A DNA stretch of 56,640 bases, the filler included, from Basidiobolus ranarum (taxonomy: Eukaryota), in the NCBI GenBank assembly GCA_040143965.1. It is 5 parts of 5 records of this genome, joined end to end, with 100 filler letters (N's around TTAATTAATTAA, not from the genome) between each part and the next. Parts side by side here need not be neighbours in the genome. Positions count along the whole stretch, not along the records: positions 45,433 to 56,640 come from JASJQH010000629.1; 4 more parts are not named here. One strand, 5' to 3'. How positions within the stretch are numbered: the first letter of the stretch is position 1; every line of letters starts with the position of its first letter. The position numbers were made by a program, and so were the translations under genes. A model generated the notes under the pieces. That model was given only the letters and a program-made list of their open reading frames with translations. It was not told where the DNA came from and made no database searches. Below are positions 11,293 through 56,548 of the stretch, piece by piece.

Positions 11293-11392
11293 NNNNNNNN
11301 NNNNNNNNNNNNNNNNNNNNNNNNNNNNNNNNNNNNTTAATTAATTAANNNNNNNNNNNNNNNNNNNNNNNNNNNNNNNNNNNNNNNNNNNN
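11293..11392. other. Artificial contig linker
   Basis: 44 N + TTAATTAATTAA (stops in all six frames) + 44 N. Confidence 0.98.
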
Positions 11393-18324: not shown

Positions 18325-19996
18325 ATGGCCAAAGGAACCGTTATCTATACTACAGTCCCCAATTCCTCAAGCGAGGAAGAGCGAGAGGAATTGCTTGAGA
18401 ATCGCGGTCGTCCAATGCGAAGAAACCCTCTGCTTTACCTGATGCTTGCCGTTGCCTCTAGTATTCTTATAGGTTCCTCCGTATTTCTACACTCACACTT
18501 TAAAGGTAGACTTGAATTACTGTTTCCCGGTTCTAGTGAACTAAGTTACTAAATTCCATTTTCCAGTCAAACCAAAGCGCAACGTTATTATGATGATATC
18601 TGATGGATTTGGCCCGGCTTCTGAGACATACTCGCGCCTTTATTATCAATGGGCTAATAACCTTCCCGTTGGATATCAAACTCCTCTAGATAGTATCCTT
18701 GTTGGTGCATCCAGAACTCGATCAAACTCCAGTATGATCACTGACTCTGCAGCCGGAGCTACTGCTATTTCGTGTGCTTTGAAAACTTTTAATAATGCAG
18801 TTGGTGTTGATGCGTTAGAGGAACCTTGCGGTACACTTCTAGAGGCTGCCAAACAAAATGGAATGCTTACTGGACTAGTTGTCACTAGTCGCATTACTCA
18901 CGCCACACCCGCATCTTTCTCTTCTCACGTTGTTCATCGTAATCTTGAATACCTTATTGCTGAGCATCAAATCGGCAACTATGTATTAGGCCCTAGTGTT
19001 GATTTGATGTTTGGAGGAGGAAGATGCTTTTTCTTACCAAATATCACTGCAGGTAGCTGCAGACCAGATGCTAAGGATTTGGTTAATGAAGCTCAACATC
19101 GTGGTTTCAAATATATCGAATCCAGAAAGCAATTTGACGACCTGAAGGAGAATCCTTCGCTACCTTTAATGGGTCTCTTTGCACTTGATCACATGGCTTA
19201 CGATATTGATCGTGACCCCAAAACTCAACCTTCTCTTAGCGAGATGACTCAAAAGGCACTCAACGTACTAAAGAAAGCAACCGAAAAAAACGAGAAAGGA
19301 TTCTTCATGATGGTTGAAGGTAGTCGTATCGATATGGGTGCTCATAACAACGATCCAATTGGTCATCTTCATGACATTCTCGCATATCAAGACACCATTG
19401 CTACCGTAAAGAAGTTTGTGGATGCAAACCCTGATACCGTGATGATATCTGTCAGTGATCACGAGACTGGAGGGTTTACAGTAGGCCGTCAGGTGACCAC
19501 AACATATCCTGAATATATTTGGTATCCCGAAGTAATCGCCAAATGTAAGAGCTCTACTTCAGCTCTGGGTAAACTCATTGCTGACTACAAAGGAGAGGGT
19601 AAAGAGGAATTTATCATCAACATTCTTAAGGAGAAACTGAGTATTGTTGATCCAACTAAGGAGGATATTGAATACTTAGTAGCAGAGAACAGCCCGTACG
19701 ACTATGCCTATCGTTTATCTAATATGGTCAGTATACGTGCGCAATTGGGATGGACTACTCATGGACATACTGGAGTAGACGTGAATCTATACGCTTATGG
19801 CTCTCACTCTCAGGAGCTCGCGGGTAATCGTGAAAATACGGAGATAGGTGAATTTATTCAGAACTTCTTGAACTTGGACTTGGATTCCATTACTGCGAAC
19901 TTGCAAAAGACACCCCCTCAAATTCGTGCCGACATGCAGATGATGAAGAAGCTCGATGAAAGACCACTGGATATTCATGAAGATTATATCTTGTAG
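18325..19996 (+). CDS. PHO8: Vacuolar-type alkaline phosphatase with an N-terminal transmembrane anchor, ~536 aa
   Basis: Exons 18325-18505 and 18567-19996. Motifs NVIMMISDGFG, TDSAAGAT (catalytic Ser), THATPA, VEGSRIDMGAH, SDHETGG and GHTGVDV. Confidence 0.95.
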
Positions 19997-22654: not shown

Positions 22655-22754
22655 NNNNNNNNNNNNNNNNNNNNNNNNNNNNNNNNNNNNNNNNNNNNTT
22701 AATTAATTAANNNNNNNNNNNNNNNNNNNNNNNNNNNNNNNNNNNNNNNNNNNN
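22655..22754. other. Artificial contig linker
   Basis: 44 N + TTAATTAATTAA + 44 N. Confidence 0.98.
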
Positions 22755-34009: not shown

Positions 34010-34109
34010 NNNNNNNNNNNNNNNNNNNNNNNNNNNNNNNNNNNNNNNNNNNNTTAATTAATTAANNNNNNNNNNNNNNNNNNNNNNNNNNNNNNNNNNN
34101 NNNNNNNNN
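34010..34109. other. Artificial contig linker
   Basis: 44 N + TTAATTAATTAA + 44 N. Confidence 0.98.
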
Positions 34110-45332: not shown

Positions 45333-45432
45333 NNNNNNNNNNNNNNNNNNNNNNNNNNNNNNNNNNNNNNNNNNNNTTAATTAATTAANNNNNNNNNNNN
45401 NNNNNNNNNNNNNNNNNNNNNNNNNNNNNNNN
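45333..45432. other. Artificial contig linker
   Basis: 44 N + TTAATTAATTAA + 44 N. Confidence 0.98.
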
Positions 45433-50744: not shown

Positions 50745-53700
50745 ATGAACTCTTATTATCAAACCCATAACGAAAGACTCGGCCAACCTAAAGCTCACAA
50801 TAACTCAAGAGAAGATAGTCGCTATGAAAGCGATTCCTACTATCCCAACTCGAATCACTCAGCTTCAACTCTAGCTAATTCACAGTCAAGAAATTTTAAC
50901 TACCAAAAAGTAAGTTGCGTTGATGCATTCACAATCGAAATATTTTTCTTAGCTACTCTACTATTGAAACCAAATTAATCCTTCATTCTGAATTTCTAAA
51001 AGGAGGACAGCCATCGACGTCTGGCATCTAGGGCGTATGGCTTAGAATTAAACGTAGATAATCTTGATGAAAATAGTTACCTACCATTTGATAAAATTAA
51101 TGAAGAGAGGTATAATTCTCACTCTCAGTTCAGGGGCTCTTCCCATTATTCCAATGGACCGAATCCAAATTTCATCCCAACTGGATTAAATCCTCCTATG
51201 AATTTGAATACTCGTCGTAATAGTCTCCCCTTTGGAAATAGCAGAAATCATGATCATTATCGACTTGCACGCTTGGAAACACATCTCCATTTACCGGGAC
51301 TTGGTGATTTGCATTCACCTGAGTTGGCTCAACCAATACTTCCCAATTTCTTGTTGAGTGGAGAATATGATTCACCAGACTTGGAACATTCGATATACGG
51401 AAATATCAATGGGAATACACCTGGCAGACAACCATGGACAGAAGCCTCCTCTTCACATTATCCTTCAGGACAGCTTCATTTTCCCAGTAATCACCAGGAA
51501 AATGCTAGACTTGGTATGAGAGCTCCCATAGAACAACTTGATTCTTATGCACCCTTCAAGTCTAATGGATACACCTCCAACAAGATGATGAATGGAAGCT
51601 ATACAATGGGAGAAAATATACGCGCACCACAAGAGAAAAATGGAACTATGGAATTGAAATATCAAGGTAAATTCAATTTTTTGAAAAAGTGCATGTACTC
51701 AGAATATCTAACATATCAATTTTAGCAAATCAAATTCTCTCTATGCTGCATTCCAAGACACCTTCACAAGATATGTGTCAAGAGCAGACATCATTTCACA
51801 CAGGTAAATTTTATGATAACGTTTTATGTGTTTGTTCTTCGTAGCCAGTGCCGAAAATCTAACACTCTTGCATTTTGTGTGTATAGCCGGTAGTTCATTT
51901 AGACAATTCGGATATGGTATTGACGAATCTCTGAATTCCATGATATTACATCACACATATTAACTCTTTACTTTGGAATAGATCAAAGCCGAAAGTTTTT
52001 ATATGATAGATACTGCTCAGAAGAGGTCCTAACCGAGGGATTGCAATTGGGAACTATCCTAAAAGGCACATTGAGAATAAATAAGCGAAATCGCTCCGAT
52101 GCCTACGTAACCACCGAGGAACTGGATCAAGATGTGTATATCTGTGGAAGCCGATTGCGAAATCGTGGTTTAGAAGGTGATACAGTAGCCATTACTCTCC
52201 TTGATCAACAAAAGGTACTTGAAATTCGTCAACAACGAAACCGAGATGCAGAGAAACGCGGTAGAAAAATCAAATGTACCGAGAAGGAAGAGAATGACGC
52301 AGAGCCCAAATATTATGGACAGGTGGTCTCTATTCTACAGCGTGGTGGAGGCAACGTTTACTCAGGAGCCTTAATGTTGAATCGACCAAATTCGAAATGC
52401 AACGAATCAGAAGACCAACAAACTAACAAAGTGAGAGAGAATGATTCTAAAGCATTCCATAAGAAACCGCGTATTGTATGGTTCAAGCCATCTGACAAGA
52501 GATTACCTTTGATGGTGCTGCCAATTGACGAGGCACCTCATAATTTCATGGAAAAGCATTTAGAGTATGCGAATCAAATCTTTCTGGTATCCATCAAACG
52601 TTGGCCACCCACCACTCTACACCCATTCGCTACCCTAGTTGGGGAACTGGGTCAAGTGGGAAATATTGAAGCTGAAACTGCTGCTATACTAGCTGACTGC
52701 GATATTGCCAGTGAAAACTTTGACGAAGGTGTCCAAGGATGTCTTCCATCGATGCCTTGGTCAATACCTGACAGTGAATATCAATCGAGAAAAGATTTAC
52801 GTGAAGATCGTCTTTTCACTATCGATCCATCAACAGCCAAAGATTTAGATGACGCAGTCTCCTGCAAGCGTTTGGATGATGGAAATTACCTTATTGGAGC
52901 GCATATTGCTGATGTCTCCTACTTTGTGCGTCCAGGCACTCCCTTAGACCGAGAAGCTCGGAAAAGAGCAACCTCGGTGTACTTGATCCAAAAGGTCATA
53001 CCCATGCTGCCACCAGTACTATGTGAAGAGCTCTGCAGTTTGAATCCGGGGGTGGACAGACTAGCATTCTCTGTAATGTGGAAGATGACACCTGATGCCA
53101 GAATCATCGACATGTGGTGTGGAAGAACTGTTATCAAATCGTGTGGAAAGCTTTCATATGAAGCAGCCCAAAATGTAATTGATGGTAACCATTTAGATAT
53201 GGGCGTCAAGATTTACGATCAATCTCGCGAGGAAGTAGAGGAAGATATTCGCACATTCCATAAACTCTCACTTGCTCTACGAAAGATGCGCTTCGATAAT
53301 GGTGCATTATCCATCGACTCCATTCGACTAGCATTTCAATTGGATCAATCCTCCACTCCAACATCATGCTCTGTATATAAAACTCAAGACAGTAACCATC
53401 TAATCGAAGAATTCATGTTATTAGCAAACATCACAGTCGCGCAATTGATTTCATCTGCTTACCCAGAACAAGCATTACTTCGCCGCCACGCTTCTCCAAT
53501 TGAAAGAAGGATGAATGACTTTGTTAAATCAGCAAGAAATCTTGGTTACGAGATTGATCCTGAAAACTCTGGAACCTTACAACGTTCACTGGCTGGAATA
53601 GACTCCCAAGAAGCTCAACAAATACTTAAAATTCTATGCATTAAACCTATGCAACGAGCCAAGTATATTTGCACTGGTACTATGGATGAGAGTAATTTTA

Positions 53701-54663
53701 AGCATTTCGCGCTAAATATCCCCTTCTATACGCACTTTACCTCGCCAATTCGCCGTTATGCCGATATTATAGTTCACAGAACTTTGCAGCAAGCTTTGAT
53801 AGGTAGTCCTCGCTTTTTCTTGAGCAAGGATGAAGTGCAGAAGGCTGCAGCTCAGTGCAACGTCAAGAAAGATAATGCTAAGGCTGCTCAAGAGATGAGC
53901 TCACAGTTGTACCTCTCATACTACTTGAACTCACTGATTGAAAAGCATGGAGAAATAGAATGTGATGCCGTGGTAATAGACGTTCATGATAGTTCATTTG
54001 ATGTATTAGTTCCTAGTTACGGATTAGAGAAACGTATCCACCTCGAGAAGCTTCCTCTTCGAAATGCCATATTCAAATCGGAAGATTTCAAGGAGCTTAG
54101 CTTATTTTGGAATACGAGTAAAGATATGGGCCAAGAAGAAAGCAAAGTGGGAGAAGATACGGAAGAAGACCTTACCGAAGAGTATGAAGAGCTTTTGACC
54201 GATGATTCCGATGAACTTGACTTGGAAAGTTTAACGTTGAAACGGGAAGAAAATATTATTGAAAAGCTATACCCAGATACACCAAGATCATTTTCCAATG
54301 GTAATAATGTTTATAACTATTCATTTGTTTTTCAACCAACTAATAATTCGTTCAACATAAGATTCGGTCAGTGAAATAAGCAATTCGCCTGCATCGTCAG
54401 AATCAAGCAAGATTCGATTCACGAGCAGTGATAGTGTTAGTAGCTACTCTAGTTCGCCCAAGAGTGTGGCCCTCGATGACCTGGATATTTGTGGAAATAG
54501 CTTAGGTTTACTTGATCATGTTGTGTCAAAGCATGAAGAAATATGTCAAGAAAGTTGTGTTCAAAACCTTCGAATCTTCGATCACCTTAGAGTATGCATC
54601 ACTGTTGATATCCAAAGATCCCCAGCGTTAATTGGGGTAATTGCCAAAAATCCATTTCAGTAA
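50745..54663 (+). CDS. DIS3L2: Dis3L2/Ssd1-family RNB 3'-5' exoribonuclease, ~1185 aa, catalytic motif intact
   Basis: Exons 50745-50909, 51003-51666, 51726-51803, 51887-51916 (probable micro-exon), 51982-54300 and 54362-54663. Motifs GTLRINKRNRSDAYV, RNRGLEGD, WFKPSDKRLP, FTIDPSTAKDLDDA and YTHFTSPIRRYAD; no PIN domain. Confidence 0.9.
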
Positions 54664-55146: not shown

Positions 55147-56478
55147 ATGAGTTTTACCTCCAGGTCAGCTTCACCGTCACCTCTCCATGTAGAGGATGCC
55201 AACTCTTTAGGTTAGTTATTCTCATATGAAAAGAAATAGAGGACTTTTAAACAGCGGGTAGTTAACTTTCTTTTCCACCCTTTCGTTGGTTCAAGCAACT
55301 TCAAGGACAAGTTACGAAAGTAAAAGTGAAAGACAACACAGAGAGATATGTGAAAAATTATCTTCATTGTTGAATAAATTTCAGTCCTCCAGAATCGGGT
55401 AAATATACTTCTTTTTATTTGAAATATTTCCTTTCTTTTCTCTTCTCTTTTCACTTGATCCTCTCTCTTTTACCTTCCATTTTTCTTCCTTATTCTGGTA
55501 ACTTGGAAAGTAACTTTTATGTGGATTTTATTAGACTTTATGAGGAGATACAAGCCAATTTGGAGAAGGAATTACGTCAGGTTTTCGAGGGTACGTGGAG
55601 AAGGGAATGTTTTTGTAGTTTGGTCACTAAATGGCATGAAATATTTCTTAGGGGGTTTCGAGGAATATACGGAACAAATAGAAGAGCTTAATATTTTATG
55701 TGAAGAAAAACTAGTGGCAGCTTCACTTCACCGAGATCATCATATATCACAACTTGAAAAGGAATATGAAGCGGAATTAGAACGAGCGCAAATTGAATAC
55801 GTTGTAAGAGAAAAAGATTAGAGTTACCATAGAAAATTCCATATCTAAAGTATAATCTAGAAAGAAAAAGAATCTTTAAAAGAACGTATGATCGTACAAA
55901 TTGAGGAGAAGAAGAAGAAATTACGGGAAGATAAAGATCTTCTGGAAATCACTAATGGTCGTTCTTTTTACTTGCTCATATATTTTCTTTATCTCCCCCC
56001 CCCCTCCACATTTCACTAATGATTTCTCTAATTTAGATATCGCCATCGAATCGTCCGCCCGTGTTCATAACACAAGAAAACATCGTAAGAAAGATGCAAA
56101 TCACCACGATGGACGCCCTAGCAGTAAGAGACGACATATGACTGATATCCTTTCATTTCTTTTGTTTCCTCCGTTCCCATTATTGGCATCGTTGCATTGT
56201 ACTCCCAATCATATGTCTCTAATCCTTAACCTGAATCACCTGATGTGATGATTTTGCAGCTAAAAGACCAAGACATCTCCCAAGATATAGCGTTGATCCA
56301 GAAGGTAAGGACTAGTAGGAAATAACTTACTCTACCGACAGAACACAAACCAGCTATCATAATGCAGGGACATGGACAACAGCTTAGCGAGTGTAGTGAT
56401 GAAGAGACCAATACAAGCACTTCAAATCATCATTGTAATGGATCATCTCATAAGAAATCCACCAAGCACCGGCGATAA
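55147..56478 (+). CDS. SDS3: Sds3/BRMS1-family Sin3-HDAC subunit, ~251 aa, 8 exons
   Basis: Exons 55147-55210, 55296-55398, 55535-55590, 55652-55803, 55861-55957, 56037-56144, 56240-56304 and 56368-56478 join in frame. Coiled coil EKEYEAELERAQIEYVKEKESLKERMIVQIEEKKKKLRED and C-terminal LKDQDISQDI block. Confidence 0.82.
56145..56239 (+). other. U12-type (minor spliceosome) AT-AC intron, 95 nt
   Basis: 5' site ATATCCTTT, branch site TCCTTAAC at 56223-56230 and 3' site CAC at 56237-56239. Removal restores the reading frame. Confidence 0.9.
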
Positions 56479-56520
56479 CTAGGTCTCCATTCTCGATCCT
56501 TTGATAAGGTTTTGAATTAA

Positions 56521-56548
56521 ATTGAATTGAATTGAATTGAATTGAATT
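56521..56548 (+). repeat. (ATTGA)n microsatellite, ~5.5 units
   Basis: attgaattgaattgaattgaattgaatt, just 3' of the SDS3-like stop codon. Confidence 0.9.

Follow-up and report, generated by a model that had tools for sequence, protein, structure and literature searches.

The closest described counterparts of the intron reported here lie in the same genus. In the portion of Larue & Roy (2023, PMC10639083) available to us, Basidiobolus meristosporus is credited with 249 minor introns (0.554%), the highest density known in fungi, and no convincing minor introns are recognized in the Ascomycota or Basidiomycota of the Dikarya. The same portion counts 205 minor introns in Rhizophagus irregularis, some of them at positions common to animals and plants; for Rhizophagus it reports no cell-cycle-linked minor splicing and favours neutral persistence. 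Olthof et al. (2024, PMC11347168), again in the available part of the text, count 237 minor introns in B. meristosporus and find genes for U11, U12 and U6atac among both mucoromycotes and zoopagomycotes; for U4atac, a putative and divergent candidate emerges in B. meristosporus at a lowered threshold only. As far as their available parts go, these two surveys uphold what the first-pass annotation of the present locus had stated, namely that minor introns are absent from Dikarya and kept in some early-diverging fungi.

The gene family concerned has also been met in work on human minor introns. In the accessible excerpts of two sources, human SUDS3 "minor intron 7" serves as a U12 reporter (PMC8280824; RBM41 preprint), and BRMS1L is counted among human minor-intron genes (PMC3728624), with Younis et al. 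arguing for minor-intron retention as a mode of regulation in human cells (PMC3728624). Conservation of intron position across the SDS3/BRMS1 family is not described in the literature searched, where these genes figure as reporters or list entries only; the per-intron supplementary lists, which lie outside that search, may well contain it.

Here we describe an intron in an SDS3-like gene of Basidiobolus ranarum (GenBank assembly GCA_040143965.1). The window, by which we mean the whole stretch of DNA analysed, is 56,640 nucleotides long, filler included, and the segment of interest spans positions 56145 to 56239 on the plus strand. We consider it very probable, as the best explanation of the evidence assembled below, that this segment is a U12-dependent AT-AC intron. 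As to the window at large, an Rfam scan of it gave no matches, and it contains four pairs of 44-N runs (11293-11392, 22655-22754, 34010-34109 and 45333-45432), the regular spacing of which, about 11.35 kb, suggests masking rather than assembly gaps.

The SDS3-like gene and its deposited models

The gene runs from 55147 to 56478 on the plus strand and is modelled as eight exons, all on that strand, which together give 756 nt without an internal stop and a protein of 251 amino acids. Two public proteins serve for comparison: K7432_009799 (P0001; 221 aa), deposited for B. ranarum, and its B. meristosporus orthologue K493DRAFT_314767 (P0002; 246 aa). Exon 1 (55147..55210) opens with the ATG at 55147 and the peptide MSFTSRS..., and ends in phase 1; it was placed by tblastn of orthologue residues 1-12, which fall on 55147-55182, and by the collinearity of the model. 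Exon 2 (55296..55398) follows from its GT-AG borders and its open frame within the eight-exon model, and exon 3 (55535..55590), which encodes LYEEIQANLEKELRQVFE-, from tblastn of orthologue residues 47-77 and from the model. The coiled-coil part of the Sds3 domain is carried by exon 4 (55652..55803), which is 100% identical to the deposited B. ranarum protein and covers Pfam Sds3 profile positions 39-86; exon 5 (55861..55957; KEKESLKERMIVQIEEKKKKLREDKD...) covers profile positions 88-123 at 25.2 bits and was also located by tblastn. Exon 6 (56037..56144) holds the basic patch ...SSKRRHMT and the first base, G, of a split codon. Exon 7 (56240..56304) begins with the CT that completes this codon as Ala and continues into DVMILQLKDQDISQDIALIQK, the conserved C-terminal block identified through the homologue alignment and block profile described below. 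Exon 8 (56368..56478), placed by tblastn and the model, ends in ...KKSTKHRR and a TAA stop. The AT-AC intron is thus the sixth of seven in the intron table, and the other six are GT-AG introns of 57-136 nt.

Several features of the surroundings may be recorded in passing. Just upstream, at 51924-54374 (+), lies an uninterrupted open reading frame of 816 amino acids for a DIS3L2-type exoribonuclease, with an RNB domain (1.9e-107), a Dis3 CSD2 domain and a DIS3L2 C-terminal domain. A run of ten C's occupies 55995-56004, inside intron 5 of the SDS3-like gene, and an (AATTG)5 microsatellite lies at 56520-56544, about 40 nt past its stop codon.

Membership of the gene in the SDS3/BRMS1 family, as proposed from the first reading of the locus, is solid. 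The deposited B. ranarum protein carries a precomputed PF08598 assignment, and the orthologue matches the Pfam Sds3 profile with 70.9 bits (cutoff 25.4) over residues 42-216, a stretch that includes the junction; taken as separate exon pieces, the matches sit at or below the same cutoff, with 25.2 bits (exon 5) and 12.7 bits. An alignment of 30 homologues (A1), used as a profile against the PDB, retrieved characterized members of the family: Schizosaccharomyces pombe Sds3 (8i03_G, 5.8e-21), Saccharomyces cerevisiae SDS3 (8ga8_H, 1.6e-18) and the crystal structure of the SDS3 coiled coil (4zqa_A, 7.8e-12). By homology, the product is presumed to be a subunit of a Sin3/Rpd3-type deacetylase complex.

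What follows the basic patch is of particular weight for the intron. In the consensus of the 30-homologue alignment the patch is succeeded by KRKxxxGPxLxxxLKDxEIxxDL, with one invariant Asp (D), and the Basidiobolus peptide fits this consensus without a gap. The C-terminal block proper, L-K-D/E-x-E/D-I-x-x-D-L, which probably corresponds to the Sin3-binding region of mammalian SDS3, is contiguous and in the same register in 28 of the 30 aligned homologues. A HMMER scan yielded 177 homologues, and among the best 150 of these many align unbroken over query positions ~45 to 187. A profile of the block alone scores above 5 bits in 116 of the same best 150, and models that appear to read through the intron match in their pre-junction part only.

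The deposited models already hold the junction. By tblastn, residues 128-163 of the deposited B. ranarum protein fall on 56036-56143 and residues 165 onward on 56242 onward, leaving Ala164 for the split codon; therefore, the deposited coding sequence already joins 56144 to 56240. The orthologue reads SKRRHMTADVMILQLKEQDISQDVALIQK across the junction, identical to B. ranarum, and the peptide SKRRHMTADVMILQLK is the same in both species. The 251-aa model and the orthologue run in parallel from Met1 through the C-terminal KHRR and share 157 identities, and it is the 56144/56240 junction only that gives an open 251-aa frame collinear with the orthologue from end to end. The two public models may not be independent at this point, since the AT-AC junction of K7432_009799 could have been taken over from that of B. 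meristosporus.

At its other end, the public B. ranarum model departs from ours. K7432_009799 begins at an ATG near 55519 and treats intron 3 (55591-55651) as coding sequence in a different frame (MWILLDFMRRYK...). The model from the ATG at 55147 has three extra exons and an N-terminus, MSFTSRS, that parallels the MSYTSRS of B. meristosporus. Because this model matches the N-terminus of the orthologue and is collinear with it over the full length, K7432_009799, right at the AT-AC junction, is probably wrong at its N-terminus.

Intron anatomy and the competing splice sites

Across the boundary the sequence reads ...AGA CGA CAT ATG ACT G|ATATCCTTTCATTTC...AATCCTTAACCTGAATCAC|CT GAT GTG ATG ATT TTG CAG CTA AAA GAC..., with the G at 56144 immediately preceding the donor and the intron starting at 56145. 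The intron (56145..56239, 95 nt, phase 1) opens with the 5′ splice site ATATCCTTT at 56145..56153, the putative pairing site of U11 and U6atac; toward its 3′ end, the branch-point sequence TCCTTAAC at 56223..56230, the putative pairing site of U12, is followed by CTGAATC and the terminal AC at 56238..56239, with the exonic CT resuming at 56240. Donor and branch were both recovered by motif search as well as by reading. The last base of the branch motif lies 9 nt before that of the intron, so that the branch A, at 56228 or 56229, is 10-11 nt away from the 3′ junction. The U12 branch-point consensus is expected roughly 10-20 nt from the 3′ end of an intron. Assignment to the U12 AT-AC class follows from the joint presence of the 5′ end /ATATCCTT, the branch consensus near the 3′ end, the terminal AC and an open, conserved frame once the exons are joined.

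Terminal dinucleotides of this kind do not by themselves name the spliceosome. AT-AC introns of the U2 type are known, the accessible part of PMC8280824 giving 85 major AT-AC or related ones for human, and the segment might accordingly possess AT-AC ends and be removed by the major (U2-type) machinery. We judge this very improbable: the donor, combined with a branch sequence 10-11 nt from the 3′ end, matches the U12 consensus exactly, the genus is published as rich in minor introns (PMC10639083, available portion), and donor positions +1 to +8, visible as D-I-L in homologous proteins (see below), appear conserved across phyla, a hallmark of U11/U6atac recognition.

Excision joins RRHMT-A-DVMILQLKDQDISQDIALIQK in frame, the codon being split after its first base and G plus CT yielding Ala. 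When the segment is retained, the frame (open reading frame 55892..56248) proceeds as RRHMTDILSF... to an in-frame TGA at 56246..56248. The sole AG within 56145-56259 is at 56258-56259, as part of the CAG at 56257-56259, and there is none inside the intron. This CAG needs a phase-0 donor because only phase 0 preserves the conserved frame downstream; the strong GT donors of exon 6, GTAAGA at 56085 and at 56124, are both in phase 1, and the single phase-0 GT of that exon, GTTCAT at 56063, is weak. On all these points, the first-pass annotation, which had called a perfect U12 donor, a branch site 9 nt from the end, an AC acceptor, a stop at 56246-56248 in the unspliced frame and nearby GT donors unfit for the CAG, agrees with the sequence, and its prediction that splicing restores the conserved C-terminal block is borne out by the homologue alignment and the block profile.

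The U12-like motifs might still be coincidental. Splicing would then use GT-AG sites, for example A|GTAAGA at 56124 with the CAG at 56257-56259 as acceptor, or the segment would stay in the transcript, so that the C-terminus would be different or truncated. The materials for such an event are at hand, in that the GTAAGA donors at 56085 and 56124 face a good, pyrimidine-rich CAG acceptor. Joining a phase-1 donor, such as that at 56124, to the CAG ending at 56259, however, shifts the frame, loses the conserved block and, on reading further, meets an early stop in exon 8, and the only donor in the required phase is the weak GTTCAT. The peptide joined at the AT-AC boundaries is present in the orthologue as well as in the deposited protein of B. 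ranarum, and the block that this join restores is the one found contiguous and in register throughout nearly the whole alignment.

How readily the motifs could arise by chance was gauged over the whole window. Neither element is enriched singly: ATATCCTT was found 4 times (3.5 expected) and TCCTTAAC also 4 times (2.1 expected). The ordered combination, defined as ATATCCTT followed at a distance of 20-500 nt by TCCTTAAC and, 5-14 nt further on, by AC or AG, has a single occurrence in the window when both strands are searched. Of 1500 simulated windows (first-order Markov), 30 contained it, or ~2%, a figure that does not require the right gene, strand or frame. This frequency leaves some room for coincidence; the main weight of the case lies in location, since the combination falls in a multi-exon gene, on its coding strand, and at the sole place where removal restores a conserved protein. 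Weighing both sides, we hold a coincidental origin of the motifs to be highly implausible and retain the U12-dependent AT-AC intron as the preferred reading.

One other U12-like pair in the window was considered and set aside. It consists of ATATCCTC at 19668 on the minus strand and TCCTTAAG 36 nt downstream (19632-19668), with no AC or AG within ~19 nt, and is most likely due to chance.

A probable donor footprint in homologous proteins

D-I-L is the expected trace in homologue models, because a phase-1 G|ATATCCTT that is translated instead of spliced must read D-I-L. Among the best 150 of the 177 homologues, seven (P0033, P0034, P0063, P0064, P0092, P0102 and P0104) carry [S/T/N]-D-I-L-[F/Y] from the split codon on, in place of the G-P-x-L of their relatives, and their sequence then diverges, degenerates or ends. 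Two further candidates, P0061 (DILY) and P0062 (HILY), were rejected as read-through, the letters in question belonging to the conserved block itself.

One of the seven, P0033, is the BRMS1-like model of the coral Porites lobata, and animal BRMS1-like proteins repeat the pattern. Among 120 such proteins listed, 100 have a Gly before the P-Y-I-V-Y-M-L block by a strict pattern and three more before a variant block. Ten show [S/T]-D-I-L instead (P0033, P0151, P0162, P0163, P0173, P0206, P0238, P0241, P0251 and P0254), their source species being Porites lobata, P. evermanni, Desmophyllum pertusum, Oculina patagonica, Capitella teleta, Lampetra planeri, Epinephelus coioides, Caranx melampygus, Oncorhynchus mykiss and Neosynchiropus ocellatus. 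The remainder of the 120 listed comprise five teleost proteins (P0203, P0224, P0234, P0237 and P0248) with other aberrant sequence and an R before the block, and two without the region. With P0033 present in both sets, the distinct D-I-L models number 16; beyond the ten from animals they are P0034, P0063, P0064, P0092, P0102 and P0104, five of which are fungus-like. All 16, public or predicted, appear to be mis-modelled at an AT-AC intron, so as to be truncated or to carry inserted junk.

Alignment and tail composition are in keeping with a shared donor. In a MAFFT alignment of 31 proteins, the Ala of Basidiobolus, the Gly of spliced relatives and the Asp of read-through models share one column. 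The tails that follow D-I-L-(F/Y/S/L) in the read-through models are mutually unrelated, as is expected when the donor alone is constrained. Together, these observations point to a probable AT-AC donor, alike in codon and phase, in the BRMS1-like genes of cnidarians, an annelid, a lamprey and teleosts, and also in five fungus-like homologues, the letters ATATCCTT in those genomes being deduced from the protein D-I-L rather than read as DNA. The first-pass annotation had placed minor introns near this motif in animal SUDS3/BRMS1-family genes, and it was right to do so, given the published U12-type intron 7 of SUDS3, the listing of BRMS1L as a minor-intron gene and the D-I-L footprint at the same column and phase. 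Its warning that annotators would mis-model the gene fits many homologues elsewhere; it does not fit the AT-AC junction of B. ranarum, which the deposited model has.

In the ESM Atlas, P0064 leads to generic Sds3-like clusters only, and the nearest cluster of the relative P0012 is mostly Mucoromycota (0.96), a match that serves as a lead only to the taxon of the read-through proteins. A metagenome scan with the 30-homologue alignment returned five loci: L001 encodes P0008 uninterrupted; in the scanned stretches of L002-L005 there is no U12-like donor, and one weak branch-like match, in L003; and in L002 a single open reading frame reads through the block region.

Because animal BRMS1-like proteins and homologues that are probably from early-diverging fungi show the same donor footprint at the same codon and phase, the intron is probably ancient, and it was probably inherited from the opisthokont ancestor. 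The protein-level evidence is also compatible with another history, in which the intron is a genuine U12-type intron that fungi and animals acquired separately, at a favoured "proto-splice" position. The accessible portion of PMC10639083 documents minor-intron gain in Physarum and reconstructs a low ancestral density of minor introns in Zoopagomycota, either of which would suit such a history. The same portion describes gain of minor introns as extremely rare, and parallel gain would have to produce the same column, the same phase and the same presumptive AT-AC subtype in Basidiobolus, in five representatives that are probably fungal, and in the BRMS1-like genes of cnidarians, an annelid, a lamprey and teleosts. 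We therefore regard parallel gain as unlikely and favour common inheritance.

Proposed mechanism and comparison with known minor introns

A conventional minor-spliceosome pathway would account for the features of the B. ranarum intron. U11 would pair with the 5′ site ATATCCTTT and U12 with TCCTTAAC, leaving the branch A bulged 10-11 nt from the 3′ end. U6atac would then take over from U11 within the U4atac/U6atac.U5 tri-snRNP, which would catalyse excision at G|AT...AC|CT. The Ala codon would form from G and CT, joining the basic patch ...KRRHMT to DVMILQLKDQDISQDIALIQK, and the product of splicing would be the full SDS3-like protein. Were the intron to be retained, the reading frame would end 3 codons beyond the 3′ junction, and the resulting protein would be without the conserved block.

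A more far-reaching proposal may be added, which we offer as a long shot. The intron would be more than 1 billion years old, older than the fungus–animal split and perhaps than the duplication behind SDS3 and BRMS1, and would have been kept at the codon before the block exon; its slow removal would gate the supply of assembly-competent SDS3 and couple Sin3-HDAC dosage to the minor spliceosome in fungi and animals alike.

Apart from that proposal, the AT-AC intron is an ordinary case of a known kind, in a genus where minor introns are already known to abound. It enlarges the set of described fungal minor introns by one well-documented case and leaves knowledge of the minor spliceosome itself unchanged. 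Its wider interest is that a family of chromatin regulators has apparently preserved an AT-AC intron at a single codon in lineages that range from early-diverging fungi to vertebrates, and that the D-I-L footprint provides a cheap, protein-level flag for mis-modelled phase-1 AT-AC introns.

Among known systems, the minor introns of B. meristosporus stand nearest, sharing genus and intron class with the intron described here, and the orthologue K493DRAFT_314767 has the identical junction peptide; B. ranarum itself does not figure in the available parts of the two surveys. Those of Rhizophagus irregularis, in the accessible part of their description, likewise belong to an early-diverging fungus and show the classic U12 consensus and the phase order 1>2>0, with no SDS3 intron named among them there; Rhizophagus, however, belongs to a different phylum than Basidiobolus. 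Human SUDS3 intron 7, as presented in the available text, is a published U12-type intron in the same gene family, a likeness of family and intron type. The AT-AC intron that we place at the Gly codon before PYIVYML in animal BRMS1/BRMS1L shares with the Basidiobolus intron the PF08598 family, the alignment column, phase 1 and the putative donor G|ATATCCTT, which on the animal side is deduced from proteins; it differs in that the split codon is Gly in the animal genes and Ala in Basidiobolus, and in that the animal proteins have an extra C-terminal domain.
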